The notes under the pieces: model-generated
The model's database searches: none
Seen by the model: the letters and a program-made list of their open reading frames with translations, nothing else
What the model was told of the DNA's origin: nothing
Assembly (NCBI GenBank): GCA_045533835.1
Contig: JAZSIM010000014.1
Span: forward strand, 20,874-84,873
DNA: 64,000 bases
Origin: Acutalibacteraceae bacterium
GTDB taxonomy: Bacteria > Bacillota > Clostridia > Oscillospirales > Acutalibacteraceae
Direction: 5' to 3'
Program-made: the position numbers and the translations under genes
Shown: positions 36,144-52,771 of the stretch, piece after piece
Numbering within the stretch: the stretch's first letter is position 1
How the letters are laid out: each line of letters starts with the position of its first letter

Positions 36144-37814
36144 ATGAAAAAGCTTATTGCAATAATTCTTTGCATCACGCTTGTATTTGCCGTGACTGCT
36201 CCTGCGGTATCAGCAGCAGACGAAGAAAGACTGCCTACGGTTTATATCCGCGGCAACGGAGAGAAGCTTTATAACGCAGACGGCACTCCCCTTAATGCCG
36301 ATTTTGCCGGCATCAGCCTTGGCGGCGGTGAAGAAGGCGAAGAGGACGATTCCGTCGAAAAAATTGTTGAGGCTGTTGTCAACATTCTCAAGCCCTTTGT
36401 TTTAGAGGGAATGCTTTTTGATAATTGGGATAATTACGGCAGGGCTATTTATGATGAGCTTGCTCCCCTGTTCAAGGATTCGGGGCTTGATGAAAACGGC
36501 AATGCCAAGAACGGCACCGGTGTTTCAACGGAGGAGCTTGAGGCCTCTACCGCACAGTCCAAGACTTCTGAACACTATATCTACAATCACGACTATAACT
36601 TTGTATATGACTGGCGTCTTTCTCCCTATGACCACGTAGACAGACTTCATCAGTTTATTACGGATATTATCAGCGCTACGGGAAAGTCACAGGTGAACAT
36701 ATATGCAAGATGCATCGGCGGCAGTCTGCTTATGGCTTACCTTGAAAAGTACGGTCATCTCGGTCATGTAAAGAACGTAATGTTTGTTGAGGTTCTTTCA
36801 AACGGCTCAACTGTTATCTCAAAATCATTCAGCGGCAAGGTTGAGTTTGATGATATACTTCTTGAAAAATATCTCGGTCAGCTGGATTACTGTGGTACAA
36901 ACGGTGTCGGTGTCGGTTTTGAGTTTCCTGCGCTTCTCAGAGAAATCGTATTCAAAACAATGGATTTCTTTAATCAGGTGAACGCTACAAATATGGTTCT
37001 CGGCAGTGTTGAAAAGCTTTATGAAAGACTTTATGAGGCTCTTATTCCTGCTATTCTGCATGCAACAGGACTTGCAACACAGGTAAATTTCTGGACCTGT
37101 GTCAAGGAAGAGGATATGAATGATGCACTGAATCTTGTGTTCGGACAGCCCGGTTCAGAGCTTCGCATAAAGTATGCCGGACTCATCGAAAAAATTCTTT
37201 ATTACAGAGAGCATATTTCCTCTGACCTTAAGGGCTATTATGACAGCCTCAGAGAAAAGGGTATTCACTTCGGCTTTACCGCAAATTACGGCCTCCTCAA
37301 TGCTCCCTTCACGGAAGATGCCGATCTGCAGTCGGATGCACTTGTAAGTCTTGAGGATGCGACATTCGGCGCAACTGCGGCAAAAATAGGAAAAACACTT
37401 TCCGATGAATATATTGCTGCACGTATTGAAAAGGGAAAGGGCAAATATATTTCAGCGGATAAGGTTGTAGACCTTTCAACTGCATACTCTCCCGAAACAA
37501 CCTGGGTATTCAAGAATGCTCACCACGATATTCTTGCTCCGTGTATGGATGTAATCCGCAGCTTTCTCAACGGCACCGGTGAAACTGTTGACAGTGTAAG
37601 CAACGGTGTCTGCTTTATGATTTATAATGAAGAAGCAAAAATTATGGAGCCTATGACGGCAGATAACTGCGGCGACCTTTCATTTATGAAAATCGGCATA
37701 GAGGAGCCTACAATCGGCTCTGCATTCAAGGCATTTGTTGATTTCTGTAAAATGTTCTTCAAGCTTATCGGAATGCTTTTCCGCGGTGAGCTTGACCTTG
37801 GAAGCCTTTTTTGA
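36144..37814 (+). CDS. Secreted alpha/beta-hydrolase-like protein (LCAT/lipase-like)
   Basis: Signal peptide MKKLIAIILCITLVFAVTAPAVSAADEE. An FVYDWRLSPYD motif (the YDWR of LCAT-like lipases). A nucleophile-elbow-like VNIYARCIGGSL. Confidence 0.55.
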   Translation: MKKLIAIILCITLVFAVTAPAVSAADEERLPTVYIRGNGEKLYNADGTPLNADFAGISLGGGEEGEEDDSVEKIVEAVVNILKPFVLEGMLFDNWDNYGRAIYDELAPLFKDSGLDENGNAKNGTGVSTEELEASTAQSKTSEHYIYNHDYNFVYDWRLSPYDHVDRLHQFITDIISATGKSQVNIYARCIGGSLLMAYLEKYGHLGHVKNVMFVEVLSNGSTVISKSFSGKVEFDDILLEKYLGQLDYCGTNGVGVGFEFPALLREIVFKTMDFFNQVNATNMVLGSVEKLYERLYEALIPAILHATGLATQVNFWTCVKEEDMNDALNLVFGQPGSELRIKYAGLIEKILYYREHISSDLKGYYDSLREKGIHFGFTANYGLLNAPFTEDADLQSDALVSLEDATFGATAAKIGKTLSDEYIAARIEKGKGKYISADKVVDLSTAYSPETTWVFKNAHHDILAPCMDVIRSFLNGTGETVDSVSNGVCFMIYNEEAKIMEPMTADNCGDLSFMKIGIEEPTIGSAFKAFVDFCKMFFKLIGMLFRGELDLGSLF

Positions 37815-38334: not shown

Positions 38335-40395
38335 ATGGACAACAAGTATGATGCTTTATTTACCCCCTGGAAGATAGGCAATTGTGAAATCAAAAACAGA
38401 ATTGTTATGTGTCCCATGGGCGGTACCTCACTTTTCGGCTGGTTTGAGCTTGGCGGCTGCCATTTTGACAAGGAAGCAGCAAAGCTTTTCATTGAAAGAG
38501 CCAACAATAACGTAGGTCTTATCATTCCCGGTATTGCACCTCTTCGCGATACCTTCTGGGGCAAGTGGCTCTGGCAGAATCCCAAGATGTTTGAGGACCT
38601 CAAGGTATTTATGGATGAAATCCATAAGACAGGCGCAAAGCTTTTCGTTCAGCTTACAGCAGGTATGGGCAGAAGCTGGGCTATCACCGAGCTTATTGCA
38701 CCTCTTCACAAGAACAAGATTACAAGGGCTATCATTAAGCCTATTATTGATACCTCACACGAGCTTGCTTCTCCCAGTCCCCAGCCCTCACGCTGGGCAC
38801 ACGATATTATCTGCCCCGAAATGACAAAGGAGCAGATTCACGAAATCATTGAAGCATTCGCAAAGACCGCAAAGCTCTGCCGTGATGCAGGCGTTGACGG
38901 TGTTGAGGTTCACGCTGTTCACGAGGGCTATCTTCTTGACCAGTTCGCAATTGAATTTTTCAATAAGAGAAGCGACGAATACGGCGGAAGCTTTGAAAAC
39001 AGATACCGCTTTGCAGCAGAGGTTGTAAAGGCTATCAAGTGTGCCTGCGGTGACGATTATCCCGTATCTCTTCGTTACTCCGTTGAATCCAAGATGAAGG
39101 GCTTCTGCGAGGGTGCAATGCCCGGTGAGGACTATGTTGAGGTCGGCAGAAATATGGAGGAATCCGAAAGAGCTGCAAAGTACCTTCAGGACGCAGGTTA
39201 TGATATGCTCAATGCCGACAACGGCACCTATGACTCCTGGTACTGGGCTCATCCCCCCATGTATATGCCCGAAAACTGCAACCTTGAGGATGTTGCACAC
39301 ATCAAGAAGTTTGTTGACATTCCCGTTGTATGCGCAGGCCGTATGGATGCTGCTACAGCTTCAGAGGCTATCGCTGAGGGCAAGATTGACGGTGTAGGCG
39401 TTGCACGTCAGTTCCTTGTTGACCCCGAATGGATCACAAAGATTATTGAGGACAGACTTGAGGACATCAAGCCCTGTATCTGCTGTCACAGCGGCTGCTT
39501 CAACTTCTCCTCCTCAAAGGGTCACGCAAATACTCAGGATCTCTTCGATACAATGGGTCTTGCACGCTGTGCTCTTAACCCCAGGACCATGCAGTCCAAA
39601 AAGTATAAGATTGAAAAGGCTAAGAAGCAGAAGAACATTGCTGTTATCGGCGGCGGTATCGGCGGTATGGAGGCAGCTATCGTTCTCGCTCAGAGAGGCC
39701 ATAAGGTTACTCTTTACGAAAAGACCGACAAGCTTGGCGGTGTATTCATTGCTGCTGCCGCTCCCTCCTTCAAGGAGAAGGACCGTGACCTTATTGCATG
39801 GTACAGACGCGAAATCACAAGATATCCCATCGAGATCAAGTTCAATACCGAGGTAAAGAACATTGAGGCTCTCGGTGCTGATGAGGTTATCGTGGCAACA
39901 GGTGCAGTTGCAAACAAGATTCCTGTTCCCGGTGCAGATAAGGCTATCGAAGCATGCGAATACCTTCTCGGTGAAAAGACCGTAGGTGAAAACGTTGTTA
40001 TTGTCGGCGGCGGTCTTACAGGCTGTGAAATTGCTTACGACTTATTCCTTCAGGGCAAGAAGCCCGTTATCGTTGAAATGCAGGATGACCTTATCACCAC
40101 TCCCGGTGTTGCACTTGCAAACACAAGCTTCCTTCGTGACTGCTTCAAGACAAATAAGGTTCCCGTATATCTCGAAACAAAGACAACAGAAATCCGTGAC
40201 AATGGTGTTACCGTTATGGATAAGAACGGCAAGAAGACAGATATCCCCTGCGATAACGTAATTCTTTCCGTAGGCTACAGACCCGCTCCCGTAGCAGAAA
40301 AGAGCAAGAAGGTTCACGTAATCGGTGACGCTTGCAAGGTAGGAAATCTCCGTACCGTTATCTGGCAGGCATGGGACGTTGCAATGAAGCTGTAA
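38335..40395 (+). CDS. NADH:flavin oxidoreductase (OYE domain) fused to an FAD/NAD(P)-binding domain, 2,4-dienoyl-CoA reductase (FadH) family
   Basis: [29 protein letters not shown] is an OYE N-terminus. A CxxCxxxC-like cluster region (CICCHSGC) is present. [14 protein letters not shown] and [12 protein letters not shown] are dinucleotide folds. Confidence 0.88.
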
Positions 40396-40421
40396 TTCCA
40401 TATTAAAAAAACATAATAATC

Positions 40422-40464
40422 AAAGCACAGAGCTACCGTAAAAAAGCAGCTCTGTGCTTTTTTC
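40422..40464 (+). terminator. Rho-independent terminator
   Basis: AAAGCACAGAGCT-11 nt-AGCTCTGTGCTTT followed by TTTC. Confidence 0.75.
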
Positions 40465-40561
40465 TGTTTGCTTCCTTATGACGGATTGAGCGTTTTATTT
40501 TTGAAAATTTATAATGAATTCACCTGTATTTTTTTAACCTCTCCCGGAATGCGATAAATAA

Positions 40562-40591
40562 ACCCGATGGGATAAAAATGTCCCATCGGGT
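40562..40591. promoter_or_regulatory. Perfect 11-bp inverted repeat next to the WYL gene promoter (candidate operator)
   Basis: ACCCGATGGGA-taaaaatg-TCCCATCGGGT. It is directly followed by TTGTAA, 17 nt, then TAAAAT. Confidence 0.3.
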
Positions 40592-40639
40592 ATTGTAATA
40601 TATGGCTGAAAGTGATAAAATGCTTATGAGGTGACCGGT

Positions 40640-41698
40640 ATGTCTTCAAAGCAACCTAAAAAACAGCTTATTCTTAATGTTCTTGATATTCTCAAAAAGT
40701 ATACGGATGAAGATCACAGACTTTCTCAGAAGGAAATCGTTGATATTCTCAGAATTGAATATGATATGTCGGCAGACAGAAAATCCGTAAGACGAAATAT
40801 CCTTGATCTTATAGAGCTTGGCTATGAAATTGAATACAGCGAAGCCATCCGGATGGTGCCGAATAAAGCAACGGGAGAATTGGAAGAAAGCTACATCTGG
40901 TCTGATTTTTACCTTGTACGGGAATTTGCGGACAGCGAGCTCAGACTTCTTATTGACAGCCTTCTGTTTTCCAAGCATATTCCTTACAGCCAGTGCAAGG
41001 AGCTTATCGGAAAGCTTGAAGGACTTTCGAACAGATACTTCAGATCAAAGGTAAAGCATATCAGGACCATGCCCGACAGTTCACTTGACAACCGTCAGCT
41101 TTTCTATACAATAGATGTACTTGATGAAGCCATAAGCCGCGGCAGACAAGTGTCTTTCTGCTATAACCGATACGGCACGGACAAAAAGCTTCATGCCGAA
41201 AAGGATGCAAACGGTAAGGTCAGGGAGTATATTATCAACCCGTATCAGATAGCCGCCACCAACGGCAGATATTATCTTATCGCAAATTACGATAAATACG
41301 AAAATGTGTCACATTACAGACTTGACCGCATTACTGACATAAAAATACTTCAGTCAGCGGTGAAGCCGATAAAGCAGGTAAAAGGACTTGAAAACGGTTT
41401 TTCTCTTCCGAAGCATATGGCAGAGCACGTTTATATGTTTTCGGGGGAAAGTATTCCCGTTGTATTCAAAGCAAAAAAATACATCGTCGGAGATGTTCTC
41501 GACTGGTTCGGAAAAAATGTTGAGTTTTCCGATGAAACGAAGGATGAAATCACAGTCCGTGTAACGGTCAACGAAAAAGCAATGCGCCGCTGGGCTCTGC
41601 AGTATGCTCTCCATACGAAAATCATTTCCCCCGAGAGCCTTATGGAGCAGATAAAGGAAGATTTAAAAAGGGCTACGGAGAATTACGACAATAGCTGA
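40640..41698 (+). CDS. WYL-domain transcriptional regulator (N-terminal wHTH)
   Basis: N-terminal LILNVLDILKKYTDEDHRLSQKEIVDIL (HTH). A central SHYRLDRITDIKIL WYL-type motif. The start MSSKQ lies 6 nt after GAGGTGA. Confidence 0.8.
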   Translation: MSSKQPKKQLILNVLDILKKYTDEDHRLSQKEIVDILRIEYDMSADRKSVRRNILDLIELGYEIEYSEAIRMVPNKATGELEESYIWSDFYLVREFADSELRLLIDSLLFSKHIPYSQCKELIGKLEGLSNRYFRSKVKHIRTMPDSSLDNRQLFYTIDVLDEAISRGRQVSFCYNRYGTDKKLHAEKDANGKVREYIINPYQIAATNGRYYLIANYDKYENVSHYRLDRITDIKILQSAVKPIKQVKGLENGFSLPKHMAEHVYMFSGESIPVVFKAKKYIVGDVLDWFGKNVEFSDETKDEITVRVTVNEKAMRRWALQYALHTKIISPESLMEQIKEDLKRATENYDNS

Positions 41699-41726
41699 CA
41701 ATTAAATGAAGAAAAGAATAACAAAT

Positions 41727-41759
41727 GGGATGTGTATGCGAATACATGTCCCGTTTTTT
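41727..41759 (+). terminator. Terminator hairpin, copy 1 of 3
   Basis: GGGATGTGTAT-GCGA-ATACATGTCCC (two G:U pairs) followed by GTTTTTT. Confidence 0.6.
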
Positions 41760-41807
41760 GTACATGTCCTGCGTTATATTTGTGTCAGAAAACAAAGGAG
41801 AATAACA

Positions 41808-42470
41808 ATGGAAAATAAAAATAAACAGCAAACCGGATATTATAAGTGTAAGATTAAAGATACACACTACAATTCAGATGGTAGTATACGTTATTGTCGT
41901 GAAACAGAATATGATAATAACGGAAACGAGATAAAAATTACTTCATTTAACCCCGATGGCAGTATACATTGGTGGAGTGAAAAGCAATATGACGAAAACA
42001 ACAGGGAAATAAAGTTAATTGATTACAATCATGATGGCATTATAGATGGATGGTATGAAACAGAATATGATAATAACGGAAATGAGATAAACTTTACTTC
42101 ATTTAACTCCGATGGTAGAAATAATTGGTGGTATGAAAAAGAATATGATGAAAACAACAGGCAGATAAAGCTTATTTATTACAATCCTGATGGCAGCATA
42201 CGTTGGTGGCGTGAAACAGAATATTATAATAACGGGAATGAGATAAAATGTACTACATTTAACTCCGACGGCAGTATAGATTGGTGGAGCGAAAATGAAT
42301 ATGACGCAAATTACAGGTTGATAAACGAGTCTGATGGCGACATAAACGAGTGGAATGAATATGAATATGATGATAATGGCAATAAGGTAAGGTGTAATTG
42401 TTTCGACTCCGCAGGAAAAATAAAAAGAGTTATTGAATATGAATACCGAAAATCTGAAATAACCGGATAA
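41808..42470 (+). CDS. Repeat protein 1 (220 aa; about eight 26-aa YD-like repeats)
   Basis: MENKNKQQTGYYKCKIKDTHYNSDGSIRYCRETEYDNNGNEIKITSFNPDGSIHWWSEKQYDENNREIK... The RBS AAAGGAG is present. It has no signal peptide. Confidence 0.75.
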   Translation: MENKNKQQTGYYKCKIKDTHYNSDGSIRYCRETEYDNNGNEIKITSFNPDGSIHWWSEKQYDENNREIKLIDYNHDGIIDGWYETEYDNNGNEINFTSFNSDGRNNWWYEKEYDENNRQIKLIYYNPDGSIRWWRETEYYNNGNEIKCTTFNSDGSIDWWSENEYDANYRLINESDGDINEWNEYEYDDNGNKVRCNCFDSAGKIKRVIEYEYRKSEITG

Positions 42471-42481
42471 TTCACCGTTAC

Positions 42482-42514
42482 GGGATGTGTATGCGAATAC
42501 ATGTCCCGTTTTTT
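42482..42514 (+). terminator. Terminator hairpin, copy 2 of 3
   Basis: Identical to 41727..41759. Confidence 0.6.
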
Positions 42515-42562
42515 GTACATGTCCTGCGTTATATTTGTGTCAGAAAACAAAGGAGGATAACA

Positions 42563-43393
42563 ATGGAAAATAAAAGCAAACAGCAAACCGGATATTATAA
42601 GTGTAATATAAAAGATACACACTACAATTCAGATGGTAGTATACGTTATTATCGTGAAACAGAATATGATAATAACGGAAACGAGATAAAATCTACTTCA
42701 TTTAAACCCGATGGCAGTATAGATTGGTGGACTGAAAAAGAATATGACGAAAACAACAGGCAGATAAAGCATATTGCTTACAATTCTGATGGCAGCGTAA
42801 TCAACTGGTATGAAGAAGAATATAACAACAACGGAAACGAGATAAAACAAACTGAATATGATTCTGACGGCAGTATATATTGGTGGAGTGAAACAGAATA
42901 TGATAATAACGGAAATGTGATAAAACAAACCGGCTATGATTCTGACGGCAGTATAAATTGGTGGAGTAAAAAAGAATATGATAATAACGGAAATGAGATA
43001 AAGCTGACTGAATATAATTCTGACGGCAGTATAGATTGGTGGAGTGAAAAGGAATATGACGAAAACAACAGACAGATAAAGCATATTTATTACAAGTCTG
43101 ATGGCAGCATAAACCGTTGGCATGAAAAAGAATATAACAAAAACGGTAATAAGATGAAATTTTCTTCATTTAGCCCAGACGGCAGTATAGATTGGTGGAG
43201 CGAAAATGAATATGACGCAAATAACAGGTTGATAAAGCATACTGTTTACGAGTCTGATGGCGACATAAACGAGTGGAATGAATATGAATATGACGATAAT
43301 GGCAATAAGGTAAGGTGTAGTTGTTTCGACTCCGCAGGAAAAATAAAAAGAGTTATTGAATATGAATACCGAAAACCTGAAATAACCGGATAA
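42563..43393 (+). CDS. Repeat protein 2 (276 aa; about ten or eleven 26-aa YD-like repeats), paralog of 41808..42470
   Basis: MENKSKQQTGYYKCNIKDTHYNSDGSIRYYRETEYDNNGNEIK...; the 5' and 3' ends are nearly identical in DNA to gene 1. Confidence 0.75.
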   Translation: MENKSKQQTGYYKCNIKDTHYNSDGSIRYYRETEYDNNGNEIKSTSFKPDGSIDWWTEKEYDENNRQIKHIAYNSDGSVINWYEEEYNNNGNEIKQTEYDSDGSIYWWSETEYDNNGNVIKQTGYDSDGSINWWSKKEYDNNGNEIKLTEYNSDGSIDWWSEKEYDENNRQIKHIYYKSDGSINRWHEKEYNKNGNKMKFSSFSPDGSIDWWSENEYDANNRLIKHTVYESDGDINEWNEYEYDDNGNKVRCSCFDSAGKIKRVIEYEYRKPEITG

Positions 43394-43405
43394 TTCACCT
43401 TCAGC

Positions 43406-43438
43406 GGGATGTGTATGCAAATACATATCCCGTTTTTT
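43406..43438 (+). terminator. Terminator hairpin, copy 3 of 3
   Basis: GGGATGTGTAT-GCAA-ATACATATCCC followed by GTTTTTT. Confidence 0.6.
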
Positions 43439-43448
43439 CTTTTTCAGC

Positions 43449-44888
43449 TTATTTCTTATTTACAAACTGTGCGGCAGCATATCTTGAATGAACATCCAGC
43501 TTGCGATAAATCTTTTTTGTATAGTCGTTTACCGTATGCTCCGAAATAAACAGGGCCTTTGCAATTTCCGAATTGCTGTAGCCGCAGCCTATAAGGTCAA
43601 GCACCTCAAGCTCTCTTTTTGTAAGTGTTTTAATCATATCGTTAATACCTTCATTCTCTGCCGCTTCTGTAAACTCTGCTTCGTCGGAACAGACAACAGC
43701 CTCCTGTATTTCTGAGCTTTCCTTCACCGTATCAGTATCGGGTATTTTTCTTTTGAATGCATACATAAAGTACGGCTCAATCTGTAAATAGATAATTACA
43801 AGAATTACCATTATAATGCCGTAGGTAAGATTCAGCATTGAAGGAATATCGCGGAAGACTTCAACCATTGTGCTCTGGACAAGCACCGCAACAAGTGCAA
43901 GACCGATAGTTACCGGAGTGAGGTATTTTGACGGGTATGATTTCATCATCATAACACAGTAAAGGGGAATCATCTGGCATGGAACCATACCGATACCGAT
44001 AAGAACACAGGATACATAAGAAAGCGCAGGTATATAGGCTGCCGCGTACATCAGGAGAAAGCCTACTCCTCCAAGAGCCATTGAAACGGAAATTGAACGG
44101 AAGGGATGCACGTTCAGTTTCTTATAAAGCACATAAATAAGTATTGATACGGCGGCATCCGTAAGATATGTAATAAATACACCGTGAGACACTTCTCCGG
44201 AAATTGAAGGACCGGAAACCGCCATAAGCGCAGATATGAAAATAAGAATGTATGTGCCGCAAAGCAGCTTTTTAGGTGCGGTAAAATTATCTTTTTTTCT
44301 GACATATTCCGGAAAGCTGTCCTTGGTTGCCGGCATACTGAAATAGAATACAAGAAGAAAAATAAGTGCGAACACGGTAACAATACGGAAAAAGGGGAAG
44401 GATATGGGAAGAAAATCGTTCTGCACGGCGGAAATCAGAAGCAGAGATACGCCGTATGCTACCGTAAGGTGTCTTATTGCCGCTTTCTCCGAAAAGAAAT
44501 TCACCATAAGAAAGGACTCAAAGCCAATCATTGTACAGCAGATGAATATGTGGGCATATATAAGAAGTCTCAGTATAGCTTCTTCAAGAGGAAGGAATAA
44601 GCAGAAAATTGTTACAAGGGCGGCTATGGTGCAGATTCTTCCTGCAATAACCACTTTTTTTGGCAGTACGAGCATAAACAGAATTGAAACGACGTATGCT
44701 GCTGCTATAAGCGTTGCAATATTATCCATCGATATAGGGAGCGGAGTTCTTCCGTCAATGTTAAGTGCCGGCCCCATAAAGTATATAAATCCCATTTGCC
44801 AGAAGCAGAACATAGAAAAACACAGCAGCTGCCACAGCGGCGGGTCAAGTCTTTTCTGTTGATTTCTTAATAATAGTGAATTGCTCAT
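43449..44888 (-). CDS. Membrane-embedded LuxR-family regulator (about 10-12 TM helices plus a C-terminal GerE/LuxR HTH)
   Basis: C-terminal LTKRELEVLDLIGCGYSNSEIAKALFISEHTVNDYTKKIYRKLDVHSR. The N-terminal 390 aa are strongly hydrophobic. Confidence 0.8.
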   Translation of the reverse strand: MSNSLLLRNQQKRLDPPLWQLLCFSMFCFWQMGFIYFMGPALNIDGRTPLPISMDNIATLIAAAYVVSILFMLVLPKKVVIAGRICTIAALVTIFCLFLPLEEAILRLLIYAHIFICCTMIGFESFLMVNFFSEKAAIRHLTVAYGVSLLLISAVQNDFLPISFPFFRIVTVFALIFLLVFYFSMPATKDSFPEYVRKKDNFTAPKKLLCGTYILIFISALMAVSGPSISGEVSHGVFITYLTDAAVSILIYVLYKKLNVHPFRSISVSMALGGVGFLLMYAAAYIPALSYVSCVLIGIGMVPCQMIPLYCVMMMKSYPSKYLTPVTIGLALVAVLVQSTMVEVFRDIPSMLNLTYGIIMVILVIIYLQIEPYFMYAFKRKIPDTDTVKESSEIQEAVVCSDEAEFTEAAENEGINDMIKTLTKRELEVLDLIGCGYSNSEIAKALFISEHTVNDYTKKIYRKLDVHSRYAAAQFVNKK

Positions 44889-45140
44889 AATTTTTCTCTC
44901 TTTTCTTATAAAAAAACTGCAAATTTGGGTAGTAAACCTAAAAACCCCTTGAATAAGGGATAGAAAACTCCCGCTTTTTTTTGATATAATCCGGGTGTAA
45001 ACAGCATTTTATTGTTTACCTGTTGTCTGTCTTACTTTTTCATTATAACAAAGAAAAAGTAAAAGTTCAATCTCGATTGAGTTTTCCTACCAGTTTGAAC
45101 AGAAAAACTACCCATATTGACTAAAAAAGGAGTGATGCCG

Positions 45141-45419
45141 ATGAACAGAGTAACTGACGAAAAGACACATTTTTTTGACTATATGGAGCTTTTGAGCCGG
45201 GAATTCAAAATACTGAAGGAAAAATATCCGGAGCTTGGTGAATTATCCCACAGAGAGCTGGAAGTATTTCTGCTGCTTATGTCAGATAAAACACAGAAAC
45301 AGATAGCCGAGGAACTGTTTGTTTCAGCCTCTGCCATTCATTTTCATACAAAAAATATCTATAAAAAGCTGAGTATATCCGGCAGAAAGCAGCTCCTTAT
45401 TAAGTACAGTAATATTTGA
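45141..45419 (+). CDS. Small LuxR/GerE-family HTH protein (92 aa)
   Basis: LSHRELEVFLLLMSDKTQKQIAEELFVSASAIHFHTKNIYKKLSISGRKQL. The start MNRVTDEK lies 8 nt after AAGGAG. Confidence 0.7.
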   Translation: MNRVTDEKTHFFDYMELLSREFKILKEKYPELGELSHRELEVFLLLMSDKTQKQIAEELFVSASAIHFHTKNIYKKLSISGRKQLLIKYSNI

Positions 45420-45433
45420 AGGAGGTTTTTATA

Positions 45434-46282
45434 ATGGGATTTCTTGAACGTGCAATAAGGCGCGGTATCAGCGAGGGCATCGGGAAAGCAGTCGGTAATG
45501 CAATAAATCAGGCAATTGAACCGAAAGCCTCCGAGCTTATTAACCGTGCAGCTAACCAGCTTGACAATGCGGCAGGGAATACGCAGGCAAGAAATGAGAG
45601 TTATTCCGATGTTCAGACTGCATTTTCGGGCTTTGAAAAGGCGGCACAGAGCTTTGTTACCAAACAGGCAGAGAATCTGAAAATATGCTCTCATTGCGGA
45701 GAGTCCGCTGCTGCCTCACAGAAATTTTGTCAGAGCTGCGGAAACGCTTTGCCTGAGATGACTGTAGCAGATGCTGCGGTGTGTCCCGCCTGCGGTAAGC
45801 AGAATACCATCGGTACAAAATTCTGTACGGATTGCGGAACTAAGCTTCCGTCAGCCGTAATGGAGGAAGAGGCTCACAGGAGAGAGCTTGCAGAGATTTC
45901 TGCACAATGGCAGGAAAAATTGCCACAGTATCCCGAGTGGAGTTTCGGCGGAGAAAATCTTTATATAGATGAATATGACGGATATATTGTTTTCGGTGCC
46001 GATTTCAGAAATAATGCCGGTGCTGCAAGAAATGCCTTTGAGCAGTACCGCAGTATGGCAAAGCAGAACGGCTTCAGACCTGCAGGTCAGTACCCCACAG
46101 ATGACCATTTATATAAAATGACAGGCTCCGTTTGTTATCATATTGATTTTGAGCATAGCTTTGAAAGCGGAAGCTGTCAGGTGTCTTTGGGATTTATGAC
46201 AGGTGAACCCACAGGCGGCTTCAATTACGTAAAGCCTGAGCAAAAAAAGCCCGTAGGGCTTAAAGACATATTTAAATTTTGA
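45434..46282 (+). CDS. Double zinc-ribbon protein, hypothetical
   Basis: CSHCGESAAASQKFCQSCGNAL and CPACGKQNTIGTKFCTDCGTKL. The RBS GAAGGAGG is present. The C-terminal half is unassigned. Confidence 0.7.
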   Translation: MGFLERAIRRGISEGIGKAVGNAINQAIEPKASELINRAANQLDNAAGNTQARNESYSDVQTAFSGFEKAAQSFVTKQAENLKICSHCGESAAASQKFCQSCGNALPEMTVADAAVCPACGKQNTIGTKFCTDCGTKLPSAVMEEEAHRRELAEISAQWQEKLPQYPEWSFGGENLYIDEYDGYIVFGADFRNNAGAARNAFEQYRSMAKQNGFRPAGQYPTDDHLYKMTGSVCYHIDFEHSFESGSCQVSLGFMTGEPTGGFNYVKPEQKKPVGLKDIFKF

Positions 46283-46306
46283 TTTTATCTGAAGGAGGGA
46301 ACGACA

Positions 46307-46804
46307 ATGACTTACTGTTCAAAATGTTCAACTACACTTGAAGACGGATTGAAATTCTGCCCGAATTGCGGTGCGGCGGTGGTGGTAAAGGTTAATGAAC
46401 CTGCCGAAGCTGAAGAGACAAAAAATGCTCAAAACGGCTTTGAAACTGCAGTTTCAGAAAAAATCAGTCACTTAAACGACACAAAGGATGATACGGACAG
46501 CTTTGATAAGGCTGATATCGAAAAAAATAAGGTAATGGCAGTTCTTGCATACATTATATTCCTGATTCCTCTTTTTGCGGCAAAGGATTCACCCTTTGCA
46601 AGATTCCACACAAATCAGGGATTGCTTCTTGTTATTGCCGTTGTAATTTTATCTGTCATTGCTGCAATTCCCGTCATCGGTTGGATAATTGCTCCCGTTA
46701 TCGGTATTGCTGTAACCGTGCTTGCAGTTATCGGCATATTGAATGCTCTTAACGGCAAAGCAAAAGAGCTTCCCTTAATAGGAAAATTCAGGATTCTTAA
46801 GTGA
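46307..46804 (+). CDS. Zinc-ribbon protein with a C-terminal DUF4870-like membrane domain
   Basis: MTYCSKCSTTLEDGLKFCPNCGAAV, followed by KVMAVLAYIIFLIPLFAAKDSPFARFHTNQGLLL and further TM segments. Confidence 0.72.
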   Translation: MTYCSKCSTTLEDGLKFCPNCGAAVVVKVNEPAEAEETKNAQNGFETAVSEKISHLNDTKDDTDSFDKADIEKNKVMAVLAYIIFLIPLFAAKDSPFARFHTNQGLLLVIAVVILSVIAAIPVIGWIIAPVIGIAVTVLAVIGILNALNGKAKELPLIGKFRILK

Positions 46805-46841
46805 GGCTCCTCATTAGTTTTAAGAAAGGAAAAAACAGATT

Positions 46842-49502
46842 ATGAAAAAGACTCTATTGGTAATATTTTCCGTTTTAATGCTTATTGCCGTGCTTGCGGT
46901 GTCGTCATCGGCTTATACCGTTGACAGTGAAACGAGCTTGCCCATACCCACTGAAGCCCCCGAAATATATTATATCTCGAATGATGCCCGAGATGACGGA
47001 GATCGGGTATTTGCATACTATATCAATTCCGAAGAAATTATAAATATGCAAAGGGAAATTGATGTGCTGGGTGAAGAAGCATATCTTAAAAAATACGGCT
47101 TCAATATAAGCACTGAGGAAGATTCATGGGATTCTGCAAGCATTAGTTTTTATGTTCAGTTTGCTTATTCCTTTGATAATGTGAACTGGATAAACGACAG
47201 CGATTATGCGGATTACGACGATACCAACTGGCTTCCCACCAGTATATATGATTACGACAGCTCAAAGTATACATATTATGGTCTGCCTAATGCAGACGAT
47301 ACATACTATTGGTTTGAATATAAACAGATTTTTAATCTTGCAACATTTTACGAGTGGAATTTCAGCAACCATGCACAGCTTGCTTCAAATATGACTCAGG
47401 GAAGAGCCTTCAGAACAAATGTAAATGATGAGGATACAGGCTACAGCGTAAACTTCAACAATGAAACTCTTTATGTTAAAGCCAGGTACCGTCTGTGGTA
47501 TTATACCCGCGTTGGCGGAGTTGGAAGCTACCACGTATTTTATTCTCCCTGGTCTGAAACTGTTTCCTACAACAATACCTCCAAGGGGCTTACCTATGAA
47601 ATGCCTGCTGAAGGAAATATCAATGAAGCTCCCGCATTAAAGCATATCAGAACAAGAAAATCAGGTGATTCATCATATTATCTTGTATCAATAGATTATC
47701 CCGACACATTAAAAAGAGCCGGTGCAGCCGCTGATGCTGCTTACCATAATTATGATGATGAGTATGATATTTTCCTTGATGATAATTACTACTGGGACAG
47801 AAATGTACAGTATGAATTCAGGGTGAATGACGGTCAGTGGTATGAATATACAACCACGTGGCCCGGTAATTCTGATTATGAATTTACTAATTATTTGATA
47901 TCCGAATTCTTTGAGGATGAAGGAATTGCCTACGAGCAGGGTGACACCGTTTATCTTCGTGCAAGAGTTATTATCGGTGATTTTGATTACGGTGACTACG
48001 GTAAGGTGCCGGGTGATGAGTGCTATTGGGTATCGCAGTATTCAGAGCCCATTGTAATTCCTCTTGACGGTTATTACAGAATTAATTATGACCTTAACTA
48101 CGGCGAATTTGATTACAATGCCGAAATTTTAAGACAGTTTACCGAAGAATCAACCGTAGTTATTGACCTTACAAGTGCCGATTATACTCCCACCCGTTAC
48201 GGCTATAAATTTGAGGGTTGGTACACAACCGAGGATTTCGCAGAGGGAACCAAGATAACAAGCATTGATACATCTGCTGAAACAAACCACAGAGTTTATG
48301 CAAAATGGTCTGCAACGGAATATAACATAACCTATGTTCCCGGTACTAAGAGATATGTATATAATTACAATCCTTCCCTTGTAACAACCTATATGGATAA
48401 CGAGGTGCTTGAAGACCCCTCCTGCTCGGGACTTACCTTCCTCGGCTGGTATACAACAGCTGATTTTAAGGCAGGAACCGAAATTACGGAAATAAAGTGC
48501 TCAGAGCTTACAGGCGACATTACATTATATATGAAGTGGAACATTCCCACATATACCATTACTTATGTATTGAACGGCGGAACGAATGCCCCTGAAAATC
48601 CCACAAGCTTTACTGTTGATATTGAGGATGAAGATGATTATATCAACATAAAGGCACCCACAATGAAGGGTATGATTTTTGACGGCTGGTATTATTATGA
48701 AGATTTCTCAAGCGCACTTACAAAAACCGAAAACGGCTACAATATGCACCGCTACGGACATAATATCACCCTTTATGCAAAATGGATTAAGGCAAGATAT
48801 GACATAACATACGTTCAGCCTGCGGCTCAGAAGAATGTATCTAACCCCAATCCCTCACAGTATACATACGGTGATACGGTGAAGCTTCAGGCTTTATCAG
48901 ACACGGGTTATACCTTCGGCGGATGGTTCACCGATGCCGCATTTACCAAAAAGGCTGCCGATATTACCGCAACGGATGAGGGCGCAAGAACCTTCTATGC
49001 AAAGTGGACAGAAAATGTTTACAATATAGTTTATGTTCACGATACAATTGCCGCACTTACTCCTCCTGCAAATAAAATCAATAACAGCAATCCCGCTACA
49101 AGAAAATATACTCAGAAGGTAACTCTTACCGCACCCTACACGGGAGACGGCATATTTGAATTCATGGGCTGGTATAATAACGTTAATTTCCAGGGCAATG
49201 CCGTAACCGAAATTGCAGCAAACAAGGCTGAGCATACAACCCTTTATGCAAAATGGTTTGTATATCAGTGGGGTGACATTAATCTTGACGGTACAGTTTC
49301 CGCTGCTGATGCAAGACTTGCCCTGAGACATTCCGTAGGTCTTGAAAAAATTGAAGGCAAGGGATTCTATTGGGGAGATATCACTTACAGCGATAATGCA
49401 ATCTCAGCATCCGATGCAAGACTGATTTTAAGAATGTCTGTAGGCTTTGATTCTGCAGAATCCCTGCAGCTTCCCGAAATTCCGCCGGCACTAAAAAAAT
49501 AA
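46842..49502 (+). CDS. Cell-surface protein: signal peptide, unknown N-terminal region of about 400 aa, Listeria-Bacteroides (Flg_new) repeats, C-terminal type I dockerin
   Basis: The repeated pattern GYKFEGWYTTEDFAEGTKITSI / LTFLGWYTTADFKAGTEI / MIFDGWYYYEDF / YTFGGWFTDAAFTKK / FEFMGWYNNVNFQG is present. The dockerin reads GDINLDGTVSAADARLALRHSVG...GDITYSDNAISASDARLILRMSVG. Confidence 0.85.
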   Translation: MKKTLLVIFSVLMLIAVLAVSSSAYTVDSETSLPIPTEAPEIYYISNDARDDGDRVFAYYINSEEIINMQREIDVLGEEAYLKKYGFNISTEEDSWDSASISFYVQFAYSFDNVNWINDSDYADYDDTNWLPTSIYDYDSSKYTYYGLPNADDTYYWFEYKQIFNLATFYEWNFSNHAQLASNMTQGRAFRTNVNDEDTGYSVNFNNETLYVKARYRLWYYTRVGGVGSYHVFYSPWSETVSYNNTSKGLTYEMPAEGNINEAPALKHIRTRKSGDSSYYLVSIDYPDTLKRAGAAADAAYHNYDDEYDIFLDDNYYWDRNVQYEFRVNDGQWYEYTTTWPGNSDYEFTNYLISEFFEDEGIAYEQGDTVYLRARVIIGDFDYGDYGKVPGDECYWVSQYSEPIVIPLDGYYRINYDLNYGEFDYNAEILRQFTEESTVVIDLTSADYTPTRYGYKFEGWYTTEDFAEGTKITSIDTSAETNHRVYAKWSATEYNITYVPGTKRYVYNYNPSLVTTYMDNEVLEDPSCSGLTFLGWYTTADFKAGTEITEIKCSELTGDITLYMKWNIPTYTITYVLNGGTNAPENPTSFTVDIEDEDDYINIKAPTMKGMIFDGWYYYEDFSSALTKTENGYNMHRYGHNITLYAKWIKARYDITYVQPAAQKNVSNPNPSQYTYGDTVKLQALSDTGYTFGGWFTDAAFTKKAADITATDEGARTFYAKWTENVYNIVYVHDTIAALTPPANKINNSNPATRKYTQKVTLTAPYTGDGIFEFMGWYNNVNFQGNAVTEIAANKAEHTTLYAKWFVYQWGDINLDGTVSAADARLALRHSVGLEKIEGKGFYWGDITYSDNAISASDARLILRMSVGFDSAESLQLPEIPPALKK

Positions 49503-49526
49503 GCTTATAAACCCTTAACTGCAATC

Positions 49527-49566
49527 AAAACCACCGGTTAAATTAATGAACCGGTGGTTTTGGCTT
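49527..49566 (+). terminator. Rho-independent terminator
   Basis: AAAACCACCGGTT-9 nt-AACCGGTGGTTTT followed by GGCTTT. Confidence 0.75.
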
Positions 49567-49631
49567 TATTTCCGGAAATTATCAATCATCAGAAATCAGC
49601 AGAATTGCACATATATATTTATCGGACAAAG

Positions 49632-49661: not shown

Positions 49662-49679
49662 GTGACAGAGGGTGAGAAA

Positions 49680-50660
49680 ATGAACAAGCTTTTAAGTGAC
49701 GTGCTGAAGATTATGCCGTCGGGGCTTAAAACGCCCTTGTCTTTTGCCTTTGAAGATGCGGACGGTATTTATGAGGTAAGGATGATTTGCGGTGAGTCCG
49801 TTTATCTCGTGACGGAAAACGGGACAATGTTTCTTGACGAAAACGGAAATCTGTCACGGTTTTTTCCTCTTAATGCTCTTAAGCCCACAGCTTCCGAGCT
49901 TAGTGAAATAACCGACAGAAGCATAGGATATTCGGGCTTTTTCCGTGAAAACGAGCTTAAAAACGGCTGCATTACATATTCGGACGGCATCAGAATCGGT
50001 CTTTGCGGTGACGCATCTGCAGAAAACGGAGGGATCGGAAAAATCACCTCCCTTAATATCCGTATTCCCTATTTCGGGAAAGCCGATACGGGAACGGATT
50101 TCGGGAAGCTTCTCTCCTTTTCCTCGGGCCTTCTCATAGCAGGGGCTCCGTCAAGCGGAAAAACCACGCTTCTCCGCGGAATTGCAGAATGGCTTTCCCG
50201 TGGTAAGACGGGAGAATATCAGAAGGTCTGTATAATTGACGAAAGAGGGGAGCTGACGGCAGGGAAAAGCCTTGGTCCCTGTGCGGACGCAATAAGGGGT
50301 ATGAAAAAGGCGGATGCAATTTTGCACGCTGTAAGGCTTCTTTCTCCCCGTTATATAATCTGCGATGAAATCGGAGGAACCGAGGAAACAAAAAGCATTC
50401 TTCAGGGGCTCAATTCCGGTGTGTCCTTTATTGCTTCGATTCATGCAGGTGACGTGTCTTCTCTTGTACGCAGACAGCAGTTCAGAATTCTTTTTTCCGA
50501 AAACGTTTTCGATAAGGCGGTATTTCTTTCCTCTTCATCACCGGGAAAAATTACTGCCCATTATTCTTACGGGGAGCTTTTATATGAAATTCGCAGGTCT
50601 TATGAGCCTTTGCACGGCAATAACGCTTTCGGGGCTGTATCTTTCACTTCTTCAGAATAA
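49680..50660 (+). CDS. spoIIIAA: Stage III sporulation protein AA (ATPase)
   Basis: Walker A GAPSSGKTTLLRG is present. It is the first gene of an eight-gene spoIIIA-ordered operon. Confidence 0.85.
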   Translation: MNKLLSDVLKIMPSGLKTPLSFAFEDADGIYEVRMICGESVYLVTENGTMFLDENGNLSRFFPLNALKPTASELSEITDRSIGYSGFFRENELKNGCITYSDGIRIGLCGDASAENGGIGKITSLNIRIPYFGKADTGTDFGKLLSFSSGLLIAGAPSSGKTTLLRGIAEWLSRGKTGEYQKVCIIDERGELTAGKSLGPCADAIRGMKKADAILHAVRLLSPRYIICDEIGGTEETKSILQGLNSGVSFIASIHAGDVSSLVRRQQFRILFSENVFDKAVFLSSSSPGKITAHYSYGELLYEIRRSYEPLHGNNAFGAVSFTSSE

Positions 50661-51090
50661 GAGGCTCCGGCTGTTGAGGGAGCTTTGTGCCTTCTTTGGT
50701 GATATAGGGGAGCTTGCAGGCTCCGGCAGGTCGGATTTTACTGAAATCTTTTCAAGTCTGTCCGAGGCCCGTAAATACAGATATCTTACCTTTATAGATA
50801 CGGTGGCATCCCGTTATGAAAGCGGACAAAACCTTAAGGAGGTCTGGAAGAGTGCCGTGCAGTCCTTTTGCCCCTTTTTTATAAATTCCGAAATAAAGAC
50901 CTTGCTTTTTTCTTTCTCCGACGTTTTCGGCAGATGCACAAGGGAGGGCTTCCTTAAAAGGTGCGGGGAAATTTCTTCACTTGCGGGAAGGCTTCTTTCG
51001 GAAGAGGAAAAGAGGTATGAGAAAAACCGCAGTATGACGGTATATTCGGGGGTGCTTGCAGCCGCTGCCATATTCTTTATTTTCATTTAA
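50584..51090 (+). CDS. spoIIIAB: Stage III sporulation protein AB
   Basis: MKFAGLMSLCTAITLSGLYLSLLQNKRLRLLRELCAFF... follows GGGGAG. At 168 aa, its size and position fit SpoIIIAB. It overlaps spoIIIAA by 77 nt. Confidence 0.7.
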   Translation: MKFAGLMSLCTAITLSGLYLSLLQNKRLRLLRELCAFFGDIGELAGSGRSDFTEIFSSLSEARKYRYLTFIDTVASRYESGQNLKEVWKSAVQSFCPFFINSEIKTLLFSFSDVFGRCTREGFLKRCGEISSLAGRLLSEEEKRYEKNRSMTVYSGVLAAAAIFFIFI

Positions 51091-51093
51091 GGA

Positions 51094-51297
51094 GTGAACG
51101 GTACGGATATAGAAATTATTTTCAAGGTTGCTGCCGTAGGGCTTATTGTTGCGGTGCTCAATCAGGTGCTTACCCGTTCGGGGCGGGATGAGTATACAAT
51201 GATAACCACCCTGGCAGGCCTTGTTATTGTTATTATGATGGTGCTTCCGTATGTGGGAACAATGTTTTCTTATGTCAGGAGTGTGTTTGACCTTTGA
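51094..51297 (+). CDS. spoIIIAC: Stage III sporulation protein AC
   Basis: DIEIIFKVAAVGLIVAVLNQVLTRSGRDEY... The GTG start is uncertain. Confidence 0.8.
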   Translation: MNGTDIEIIFKVAAVGLIVAVLNQVLTRSGRDEYTMITTLAGLVIVIMMVLPYVGTMFSYVRSVFDL

Positions 51298-51683
51298 TGG
51301 TTAAAATTGCGGGAATTGTGCTGACGGAGCTTCTGGTATATGCGCTCTTAAGACAGTATAAGCCCGAGCTTGCCGTGTTTTCGGGGCTCGGTGCAGCTGC
51401 GGTGCTGATATTTGCCATAGGGGATGAATTGCGGGATACTCTCGGCTTCTTTGACAGTCTGTTTTCCTCAGGCGGTGCCTCCTCTCTTTACGTGAGTGTG
51501 CTTATAAGGGTGCTCGGTATCACTCTTATCACTCAGGTGCTTTCGGATATGTGCCGTGACAGCGGTGATTCAGCTGCCGCAACAAAGCTTGAATTTGCAG
51601 GAAAGGTAATAATAACGGCAGTAAGCCTTCCCGTTATAAAGGGCTTCGTGTCGTATGTGGCGGGATTGGTAAACGGTGTATGA
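51297..51683 (+). CDS. spoIIIAD: Stage III sporulation protein AD
   Basis: MVKIAGIVLTELLVYALLRQYKPELAVF... There is a TGATG overlap with spoIIIAC. Confidence 0.85.
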   Translation: MVKIAGIVLTELLVYALLRQYKPELAVFSGLGAAAVLIFAIGDELRDTLGFFDSLFSSGGASSLYVSVLIRVLGITLITQVLSDMCRDSGDSAAATKLEFAGKVIITAVSLPVIKGFVSYVAGLVNGV

Positions 51684-52771
51684 AAAGGTTTGCTGTATTT
51701 CTTATCTGTATTTTCCTTCTTTTTTGCTTTTCCGTAACGGCTAGCGCCTCCGAGGTGTACGGTGAGATTTTTGATTTCTTTTCCGATGATGCTCTGTCGC
51801 TTCTCAGCGAGTTCGGAATTGATACGGACGGGCAGGGGGATTTTTTTGACATTACCCCCGGAAAGGCTCTCGGTACGGTAGCCGGGCTTTTTACAAAGGG
51901 CTTTTCCGATATTTTCCGTGCAGGGCTTACGTCCCTTACCCTTATAATTGTAGCAGCTCTCTTTACGGGATTTTTCCCCGAGGGCGGAAATCTTTTCTTT
52001 ATGGGAAAGAGTGTGGCGGTAATGACGGTTATGTTTTCAGCCGTCAGCTTTACGGGCGAAATTTTCTCGGAATGTGCTTCGGCGCTTCTGATGACAAAAA
52101 ATTTTATGCTGACACTCATTCCCGTTTTTACGGGTGTTGTTGCCGTATCGGGAAATCCTGCATTGGCTGTCAGCTTCAATTCTGTGGTCTTTGCCTTCGC
52201 AGAGGGTATAGCCCTTCTTTTCAGTAACGTTATTCCCGTAATGTCTGCCGTACTTGTTGCCGTATGCTCTGCGGGAGCTGTAAATCCCTATATGAGCCTT
52301 CAGGGGATAGGGCGGACGCTGTCACGGGCAATTACTCTGCTTATGGCGTTTGTTGCCGGTATTTTCGTTGCCGTGCTGTCCGTAAGAGGTGTTATTGCAG
52401 GTGCCGCTGACTCGGTAACCATAAGGGGCTTCAGATTTCTTATCGGTAACACCGTCCCCGTTGTCGGCTCTGCTATCGGTGAAGCCCTCAACTCCGTGGT
52501 TGCAGGCATAGGCCTTATAAAAAGCACCGCAGGTATGCTCGGTATTATGGGTATCACCGTCATAAACCTGCCTGTGCTTGTTAATATAATTCTGTGGAAA
52601 GGAGCGCTTTTCGTTATGGGTGTTACGGCGGATATTACGGGTAACAGCGAAATCAAGGGCTTTTCCGAAAGCTTAAGCGGAGTTATTTCCGTTATCACGG
52701 GAGCTCTTTGCTTTGTGTCCCTTGTGTTTATTCTCAGTATAGCAATCATCCTTACGGTAAGCAGGTCATAA
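51680..52771 (+). CDS. spoIIIAE: Stage III sporulation protein AE
   Basis: A signal peptide plus a multi-TM body; the 363-aa size fits. There is an ATGA overlap with spoIIIAD. Confidence 0.85.
   Translation: MKRFAVFLICIFLLFCFSVTASASEVYGEIFDFFSDDALSLLSEFGIDTDGQGDFFDITPGKALGTVAGLFTKGFSDIFRAGLTSLTLIIVAALFTGFFPEGGNLFFMGKSVAVMTVMFSAVSFTGEIFSECASALLMTKNFMLTLIPVFTGVVAVSGNPALAVSFNSVVFAFAEGIALLFSNVIPVMSAVLVAVCSAGAVNPYMSLQGIGRTLSRAITLLMAFVAGIFVAVLSVRGVIAGAADSVTIRGFRFLIGNTVPVVGSAIGEALNSVVAGIGLIKSTAGMLGIMGITVINLPVLVNIILWKGALFVMGVTADITGNSEIKGFSESLSGVISVITGALCFVSLVFILSIAIILTVSRS

Follow-up and report, generated by a model that had tools for sequence, protein, structure and literature searches.

The stretch of DNA analyzed here, hereafter called the window, comprises 64,000 nucleotides (nt) of an Acutalibacteraceae genome (contig JAZSIM010000014.1), and the island under study occupies positions 40562 to 43438. 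It contains a gene for a transcription regulator with a winged helix-turn-helix (wHTH), a WYL and a WCX domain, an operator-like inverted repeat before that gene, and, after it, two genes for DUF2963/YD-type repeat proteins (rep1 and rep2), which are set between junction hairpins and are referred to below as cassettes (Table 1). On balance, we lean toward reading the island as a stripped-down copy of a strain-variable island at whose head stands an autoregulated wHTH-WYL-WCX regulator. Both the architecture and the linkage of regulator and repeat genes within this lineage are well supported.

Table 1. Features of the WYL-DUF2963 island and its left edge, in window coordinates
Feature	Position	Strand	Details
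Bidirectional terminator hairpin 3′ of the oxidoreductase gene	40422..40460	.	Left edge of the variable region
Perfect 11-bp inverted repeat, ACCCGATGGGA-N8-TCCCATCGGGT	40562..40591	.	Operator-like; arms at 40562-40572 and 40581-40591, 8-nt spacer; arms conserved
Promoter-like hexamers, TTGTAA-17 nt-TAAAAT, with upstream TG	40593..40621	+	Kept in ortholog alignment
wHTH-WYL-WCX transcription regulator, 352 amino acids (aa)	40640..41698	+	Pfam, PADLOC, AlphaFold2, Foldseek
Junction element 1	41727..41807	+	26-nt hairpin GGGATGTGTATGCGAATACATGTCCC, then G and a T6 run (41727-41759); leader of ~48 nt with AAAGGAG
DUF2963/YD-type repeat protein 1 (rep1), 220 aa	41808..42470	+	7 full 26-aa units plus caps; isoelectric point (pI) 4.5
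Junction element 2	42482..42562	+	Hairpin and T-run identical to those of element 1, leader nearly so
DUF2963/YD-type repeat protein 2 (rep2), 276 aa	42563..43393	+	9 full units plus caps; pI 4.6
Junction hairpin 3	43406..43438	+	2 mismatches, T-run; closes the cassette array

The regulator gene, which is preceded by a Shine-Dalgarno sequence (GAGGTG), encodes a protein that matches the Pfam WYL family at 2.3e-13 (50.4 bits) and the PADLOC WYL model at 5e-29; its Pfam WCX score of 23.7 bits lies just below the cutoff of 23.9. The AlphaFold2 (AF2) model, with a predicted local distance difference test (pLDDT) score of 73, places a wHTH domain at residues 7-94, a helical linker, a WYL domain at 169-240, and a WCX domain at 271-351. 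The protein shows the three-domain architecture of the wHTH-WYL-WCX superfamily, with the WCX domain marginal by Pfam and present by AF2, and the first-pass annotation of this gene as a wHTH-WYL regulator, made from the sequence alone, is confirmed by these matches. Foldseek ranked DriD (8tp8, 7e-12) and PafBC (9fnd, 2e-11) as the nearest solved structures of the model, followed by CapW (5e-6) and BrxR (1e-5), with WYL1 also at about 1e-5. All 32 matches at E≤1e-3 were WYL proteins, 30 of them chains of the BrxR/CapW/DriD/PafBC superfamily and 2 of them chains of the CRISPR-associated 6oaw. At the sequence level, profile searches gave weak matches to DriD (2e-3 to 1e-2) and one to PafC at 0.013 in which no stretch exceeded the threshold, and a phmmer search of PDB chains that included BrxR (7qfz, 7t8k) gave no match at E≤0.01.

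DriD and PafBC are WYL activators of DNA-damage responses that sense single-stranded DNA (ssDNA) (PMC13004042, PMC11804915). By analogy, the window regulator probably senses nucleic acid, and ssDNA is its likely signal, as it is for DriD, PafBC, and CapW. Besides being the closest solved structures, these regulators offer a parallel in the position of the operator-like repeat, which, like the DriD site, lies at or beside the −35 position, and in the DNA-repair-like cargo of many orthologs (a uracil-DNA glycosylase [UDG]-like protein, an exonuclease, SNF2). The window regulator differs from them in sequence (13-18% identity) and in a cargo that is hypervariable between strains and not a fixed regulon.

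Most known WYL regulators that head mosaic defense or stress islands come from Proteobacteria, and the first-pass annotation had likened the present regulator to those of BrxR/CapW type. The BrxR/CapW family consists of wHTH-WYL-WCX repressors adjoining phage-defense systems; the BrxR_Efer operator is an 11-bp repeat with a 5-bp spacer, and 97% of BrxR homologs are proteobacterial (PMC9122601, PMC11662680). The window regulator shares with this family the three domains and an 11-bp inverted repeat at its own promoter and, as with BrxR, heads mosaic, strain-variable cargo, which in some orthologs includes type IV restriction (GmrSD) and which also looks like DNA repair. It is, however, longer (352 versus ~295 aa), belongs to a Clostridia family, and is placed by Foldseek closer to DriD/PafBC than to BrxR or CapW (both at about 1e-5). 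Picton et al. 2022 delimited the BrxR family strictly, by a BLASTP E value of <1e-5; in the phmmer search (E≤0.01), no similarity to BrxR was found. The likeness to a defense regulator thus holds for the orthologs, which head a variable slot rich in DNA-targeting and defense-type genes; it does not extend to BrxR similarity in the strict sense or to a known defense system, which PADLOC did not find among the genes 3′ of WYL in the window.

The regulator has more than 6,000 homologs, and the best 120 listed are 68-100% identical to it and come from Clostridia and Oscillospiraceae metagenome-assembled genomes. Among GTDB species representatives, 167 relatives were found, mostly in Acutalibacteraceae and also in Ruminococcus, Lachnospiraceae, and Phascolarctobacterium. 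The ratio of nonsynonymous to synonymous substitution rates (dN/dS) of the WYL gene is 0.07-0.19.

The perfect inverted repeat that the first-pass annotation placed against a putative promoter is indeed there, one base away from TTGTAA, and it is conserved in orthologs. In an upstream alignment of eight orthologs, six keep the arms around a diverged spacer, and the alignment keeps TTGTA(A/T)TAT and GTGATAA(A/T)AT as well. Conserved arms around a diverged spacer are found in the WYL orthologs L001, L007, L008, L009, and L010 (L numbers denote the related loci), and L004 carries a variant. In other orthologs, the inverted repeat differs in sequence but keeps its place, about −70 to −84 relative to the start codon, as would be expected of an operator that co-evolves with its regulator. 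The window contains 10 perfect 11-bp inverted repeats with spacers of 3-20 nt, whereas 0.36 would be expected; most of the others are intergenic and terminator-like, so that conservation among orthologs, and not the count, is the real evidence for an operator.

As judged from sequence, the regulator therefore has an inverted-repeat operator at its own promoter, the binding being putative. When TTGTAA/TAAAAT is taken as the promoter, the repeat lies just 5′ of the −35 hexamer; with the alternative −10 TAATAT at 40596-40601, it lies over the −35 position. The two promoter readings cannot tell repression by the regulator from activation. No second WYL box was found in the window. A near-match with one mismatch at 42706, inside the rep2 coding sequence, was rejected as such a box, since it fits chance (5 of 100 shuffles reach 3 matches).

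The two genes that follow the regulator are the paralogous 26-aa-repeat genes that had been described at first reading. Their sequence has a period of 78 nt (26 aa) and a super-period of 156 nt, the units are exactly 26 aa apart, and each start codon lies 8 nt after AAAGGAG. Longer open reading frames (ORFs) at 41706-42470 and 42485-43393 were rejected as start-codon artifacts, since their ATG falls inside the noncoding hairpin and leader. The proteins are ~80% identical, rep2 amounting to rep1 plus two units (52 aa) and 4 aa, and the genes are recently duplicated. Both proteins exceed the Pfam DUF2963 (PF11178) gathering cutoff of 22.6 bits, rep1 with 75.1 bits (2.8e-21, 5 stretches) and rep2 with 126.8 bits (2e-37, 9 stretches); for RHS_repeat (PF05593, cutoff 22 bits), rep2 passes with 30.1 bits and rep1 stays below with 19.1 bits. 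Matches to Ntox35 (24.7 bits), Caudo_bapla_RBP, and DUF5342 had no stretch above threshold and were discarded as repeat artifacts, and searches of NCBIfam gave no match. The highly repetitive nucleotide sequence could suggest a noncoding tandem array or a pseudogene array. This explanation is practically out of the question given the open frames with Shine-Dalgarno sequences, the strong Pfam matches, a model pLDDT of 94, intact orthologs with synonymous changes in other strains, and the existence of 7790 homolog clusters.

The A/T-richness noted for this stretch is also real. The G+C content is 0.33-0.34 in the repeat genes, 0.42 in the WYL gene, and 0.446 in the whole window, and the G+C content at third codon positions (GC3) is 0.32-0.34 in the repeat genes versus 0.43-0.52 in adjoining genes. 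The low GC3 means that the low G+C content does not come solely from an amino acid composition rich in N, K, Y, and E.

The AF2 model of rep2, obtained with 44 aligned sequences (pLDDT 94, predicted template modeling score 0.84), is a β-hairpin meander of 20 strands without any helix, in which every 13 residues form a strand and a turn. Foldseek matched it to the YD shells of Rhs, Tc-toxin BC, and teneurin at 1e-15 to 1e-11, with template modeling (TM) scores of 0.14-0.44, which are low because an open strip is compared with a closed cocoon. Further structural neighbors are the single-layer sheets of OspA and viral models (BFVD) annotated as MORN and YwqK-family antitoxin. The proposed kinship with YD/RHS proteins is thus upheld by Pfam and by structure, and the proposed MORN/YwqK likeness finds no MORN_2 or Imm-family Pfam match in rep1 or rep2. 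The proteins also appear cytoplasmic, as had been proposed: no signal peptide, hydrophobic N terminus, or membrane segment is visible by eye, the N terminus MENKNKQQTGYYK is hydrophilic by eye, and the model is all β. Both are acidic, with net charges of −19 and −22.

With Rhs/Tc-BC/teneurin proteins, the repeat proteins share the YD-type hairpin motif and an antiparallel hairpin strip. They are, however, far shorter than Rhs/Tc-BC shells (220-276 versus >1000 aa), their sheet is open, and no plug, aspartyl-protease motif, toxin tip, or secretion signal was seen in either. The 26-residue DUF2963 unit has been described as the “Scorpion hairpin” of secreted phytoplasma effector candidates that have 2-24 units per protein and no known function (bioRxiv 10.1101/2025.07.14.664665). 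The Pfam family, the 26-residue hairpin unit, and the association with mobile or variable DNA are common to both groups, and the proteins studied here have 4-11 units. In phytoplasmas, these are secreted effector candidates, many of which have a helical tail at the N terminus, whereas the Clostridia proteins consist of repeats only, with no helix in the model. Homologs of the DUF2963 family form at least 7,790 clusters at E≤1e-3 (2,054 at E≤1e-10), and most are longer, with the repeats behind TPR, zinc ribbon, or TonB_C domains.

To place the repeat genes in their genomic context, a profile of the 26-aa unit of the window was used, and DUF2963-type genes were found solely beside the closest WYL orthologs. 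In this close subclade, whose WYL proteins are at least 81% identical, a YD-type gene adjoins the WYL gene in all 11 distinct loci, in at least four flanking contexts. On the 3′ side, DUF2963 cassettes are present in the window, L099, L097, L096, L001, L003, L008, and L010, and the subclade has one to four cassettes per locus. On the 5′ side, an RHS_repeat protein of 300-460 aa is encoded in L001 (75.7 bits), L003, L007, L008, L009, and L010; L096 has two RHS_repeat proteins of 410 and 407 aa, and in L004 the two such proteins are short (173 and 135 aa).

Five strains of the same species, including that of the window, have WYL proteins that are 95-98% identical, and the oxidoreductase and spoIIIA flanks are identical in this comparison. 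Among these strains, both the number of cassettes and the number of units vary. In the window, the WYL gene is followed by cassettes of 220 and 276 aa; in L099, by cassettes of 251 and 119 aa; and in L097, by a 193-aa gene and cassettes of 251 and 277 aa. L096 has two upstream YD genes, the WYL gene, a UDG-like gene (261 aa), and a 147-aa DUF2963 gene that starts 3 nt after it, and L001 has an upstream YD gene, the WYL gene, a UDG-like gene (229 aa), and one cassette of ~300 aa. Relative to L001, breakpoints fall exactly at the operator (40562/3), inside the WYL gene near its 3′ end (41661), and at the hairpins. In two loci, a small DUF2963 gene is translationally coupled to an enzyme gene, which is UDG-like in L096 (4734/4737) and of the PD-(D/E)XK type (PDDEXK_4) in L010 (10218/10221), where the DUF2963 protein has 126 aa.

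The junction hairpins lie 10-30 nt 3′ of a stop codon, and next comes a leader of about 45 nt that contains AAAGGAG. The same junction precedes each cassette in L001, L003, L007, L008, L010, L096, L097, and L099 and is near-invariant between species. It also precedes non-DUF2963 genes in L007 and L010 and is therefore a general cassette boundary rather than a part of the DUF2963 gene. Behind the junction, L007 carries a gene (5051-5644) for a Cys-rich predicted lipoprotein (CxxC-rich, ~170-200 aa), which is also present in L004 and L008, and L010 (13204-14310) encodes a 141-aa acidic protein (c92). The hairpins were scored as terminators, and the junction appears from its sequence to terminate the WYL operon and to insulate every cassette. 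No Rfam match was found at E≤1 in 40300-43700. A riboswitch or attenuator leader was considered and rejected: in the window, a second copy of TACATGTCC would be able to pair with the hairpin's 5′ arm, and in other species this segment reads GTGCATCTCC, so that the pairing is not conserved. A hairpin scan of Joint Genome Institute (JGI) metagenomes returned one 1.2-kb contig only and no further arrays.

Several observations weigh against a functional tie between the regulator and the cassettes. With their flanks, the hairpin regions fold at about −21 to −29 kcal/mol, so that a strong hairpin with a U-run brackets each cassette; no sigma-70-like promoter was found in the cassette leaders, and no second operator was found near the cassettes in the window. 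Control of the repeat genes by the WYL protein, which the first-pass annotation had considered, is putative in view of this arrangement, as is their co-transcription with WYL. The four distant DUF2963 homologs P0008, P0001, P0015, and P0014 lie in contexts without a WYL gene, and ~70 more distant WYL loci, below ~80% identity, have no DUF2963 neighbor. PADLOC found no match to the repeat proteins and no known defense system among the genes 3′ of WYL in the window, and there is no effector gene in this genome. Moreover, the dN/dS of cassette orthologs and paralogs is 0.46-0.69, a range that would suit a diversifying binding surface and relaxed constraint alike, and the linkage could be inherited synteny of one module and not functional coupling. 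Co-occurrence with WYL, the relation proposed at first reading, therefore stands in the close subclade, in 11 of 11 loci that include the five same-species strains, and fails in the distant homologs (4 of 4). The link is, as far as the sequences allow, strong yet lineage-specific and not a property of the DUF2963 family.

Taken further, these points would make the cassettes hitchhikers, that is, self-contained, terminator-insulated genes at a recombination hot spot, with no functional tie to WYL and co-located by shared descent. The hairpin terminators on both sides of each cassette, the missing operator, and the relaxed dN/dS agree with this account, as do the junctions before the unrelated genes of L007 and L010, the occurrence of DUF2963 homologs elsewhere in unrelated contexts, and the recurrence of other small repeat proteins (LRR_5 and WG) near WYL orthologs. 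It fits less well with a YD/DUF2963 gene beside WYL in every subclade locus across at least four flanking contexts, with the two small DUF2963 genes that sit within the WYL operon 3 nt past an enzyme gene, and with cassettes that are intact in all strains examined. We consider it somewhat unlikely, with an appreciable chance of being right. If the cassettes were mere passengers, the finding would shrink to an ordinary variable island.

The cargo of the WYL orthologs was surveyed by clustering the ORFs around 87 loci, and counts refer to 81 ortholog loci. In most loci, the first gene 3′ of WYL shares its strand; this gene often overlaps WYL or lies a few bases away, and it is extremely variable. 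The commonest is the c1/c19 family of 200-400 aa (L001:8111-8800, L079:9048-9770, L047:9057-9704, and about 30 other WYL-ortholog loci), which has no Pfam, NCBIfam, or PADLOC match and which, together with its remote relatives c48 and c88, provides the first gene in 23 of the 81 loci. The c1/c19 profile had only four matches in the PDB, namely, 4zbx (6.5e-4), 1l9g (4.0e-3), 1vk2 (4.3e-3), and the nonsignificant 1ui0 (0.23), all of them uracil-DNA glycosylases or close homologs. Pfam UDG matches of c48 and c88 are below threshold, and no profile link to UDG was found for the cargo families c21 and c55. A WYL and UDG-like module of gut Clostridia may thus be present that has not been described, as suggested by these profile matches. 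In Ruminococcus flavefaciens (L080:9130-9936 and L082:9124-9924), the UDG-like gene is convergent with WYL, on the opposite strand, unlike in all other loci.

Other cargo at or near this slot comprises GmrSD, PDDEXK_4, REase-ARP, DUF2779, Nmad2/Nmad3, DUF1643, and DUF1810, as well as an RNase_T exonuclease and an SNF2 helicase. Small BspA-type LRR_5 and WG_beta_rep proteins are encoded up to 6 kb 3′ of WYL orthologs that lack DUF2963, in ~27 of the 81 loci (e.g., L049:14681-15568, L058:6381-7217, and L038:2987-3832), with no signal peptide visible by eye. Counting LRR_5, WG, and YD/DUF2963 together, small repeat proteins occur within 6 kb of WYL in 32 of the 81 loci, which suggests a wider habit of pairing the island of this regulator with small repeat proteins. 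Many orthologs (L007:5702-11609, L017, L039-L046, and others) also stand beside a conserved block that encodes an SNF2-family helicase of ~1,190 aa, whose N terminus matches the PADLOC “cll” model, a MoxR-like AAA ATPase, a DUF2201 metallopeptidase/VWA protein, and a 5′-nucleotidase, with tyrosine or serine recombinases nearby in some loci.

Since the family heads defense-type cargo (GmrSD, REase-ARP, PDDEXK_4), the repeat proteins might themselves be anti-phage factors, such as sensors, decoys, or DNA mimics, induced by WYL on infection. Their acidity, a copy and unit number that varies by strain, the raised dN/dS, and the low G+C content and GC3 would suit such a role. We nevertheless judge it very unlikely, because the proteins have neither a PADLOC match nor an effector domain, their regulation by WYL is putative, and the hairpin is absent from viral contigs. 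The absence of the hairpin from the viral contigs of IMG/VR, where a single contig has a WYL relative (46% identity), also led us to reject a phage origin of the island.

A different proposal, close to that of the first-pass annotation, takes the repeat proteins for orphan immunity proteins of the YwqK/MORN-like kind that act against toxins delivered by competitors, the array being a small polyimmunity locus. Tandem, variable, small β-hairpin repeat proteins without an adjoining toxin do resemble polyimmunity loci (PMC3482391), and the BFVD neighbors carry YwqK-family antitoxin and MORN annotations. However, rep1 and rep2 lack the Pfam matches that YwqK/MORN_2 antitoxins or Imm proteins would give, inspection of ~90 related loci revealed no toxin cassette, whether LXG, Rhs-CT, or other, and the RHS-type proteins encoded 5′ of WYL in relatives consist solely of repeats (~400 aa) and have no toxin tip. 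We give this proposal a slim chance. An immunity-like module thus remains a conjecture, for which the support is the coupling of DUF2963 genes to the UDG-like gene of L096 and the PD-(D/E)XK gene of L010; that the island itself encodes no nuclease, ATPase, or toxin, as had been stated, was confirmed.

Under the reading that we prefer, a strain-variable island headed by an autoregulated regulator, a WYL dimer would bind the inverted repeat and respond to a nucleic-acid signal, likely ssDNA by analogy with DriD, PafBC, and CapW. Its operon partners in relatives are variable DNA-acting enzymes, including UDG-superfamily-like, PD-(D/E)XK, GmrSD, Nmad2/3, and DUF1643 proteins. The cassettes would expand and contract by recombination between the 78-nt units and between the ~80-nt junctions, and they would be transcribed by read-through of the hairpins or from an unrecognized promoter. 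The DUF2963 proteins may be binding scaffolds that partner with the adjoining DNA-targeting enzymes, probably restraining or escorting them. The enzyme gene found in most relatives is missing from the window, as it is from L099, so that the two cassettes of the window would be orphan partners; the upstream YD gene is missing as well, and both genes were lost or never present.

That the cassette proteins are cytoplasmic binding partners of adjacent DNA enzymes is a guess, which we would expect to be wrong more often than right; we offer it because of the two translational couplings and because the proteins are acidic and persist in the subclade. Bolder still, and decidedly improbable in our estimate, is the idea that DUF2963/YD proteins form a new class of conflict-system component. 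They would then be fast-diversifying, acidic, cytoplasmic binders (inhibitors, immunity or specificity partners, or DNA mimics) paired with the glycosylase-like and nuclease effectors that an ssDNA-sensing WYL operon encodes, and exchanged as hairpin-delimited cassettes, with the junction as the site of recombination and insulation.

WYL-headed variable islands, DUF2963 repeats, and YD repeat families are each known separately, and we found no literature that links such islands with these repeat families. What appears to be undescribed is a WYL family of Clostridia that has a UDG-like partner, a subclade in which YD/DUF2963 genes are constant companions of the regulator, and a cassette junction that is conserved. 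These are variations on a known theme, and the module in this window is incomplete. The comparison nevertheless brings out a large, well-conserved Clostridia WYL family with the same island layout, in which the usual partner is a UDG-superfamily-like protein. It also gives a defined context, with a neighboring DNA enzyme, an ssDNA-type regulator, and a strain-variable unit number, as a handle on what DUF2963 proteins bind.

The location of the island between an oxidoreductase and a pair of LuxR genes, as first described, was verified with Pfam, which assigns Oxidored_FMN/Pyr_redox_2 to the 5′ gene and GerE/LuxR to two genes on the 3′ side. The strain-variable slot as a whole lies between the oxidoreductase gene and spoIIIA. 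In the DNA comparison, homology to strain L001 is lost at 40433 and regained exactly at the inverted repeat (40562). Further 5′ of the oxidoreductase gene, the gene at 36144-37814, with 97% DNA identity in L001, encodes a 556-aa protein that has a signal-like N terminus by eye and a subthreshold α/β-hydrolase match.

On the 3′ side, a 6.2-kb block at 43445-49617 is present in the window, L096, and L097; in L001 and L099, it is absent and spoIIIA directly adjoins the cassettes. The block is an insertion-deletion polymorphism independent of the adjoining WYL island. It encodes a 479-aa multipass membrane protein with a C-terminal GerE/LuxR helix-turn-helix (on the minus strand), a LuxR protein of 100 aa, a pair of zinc-ribbon proteins of which one has DUF4870, and an 886-aa protein with a signal peptide and C-terminal dockerin-like GDINLDG repeats by eye. 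The conserved right flank at 49662-54305, with 83% DNA identity to L001, is the spoIIIA sporulation operon by synteny with that strain, whose genes carry the Pfam families Spore_III_AA, AB, AC, AE, and AH.

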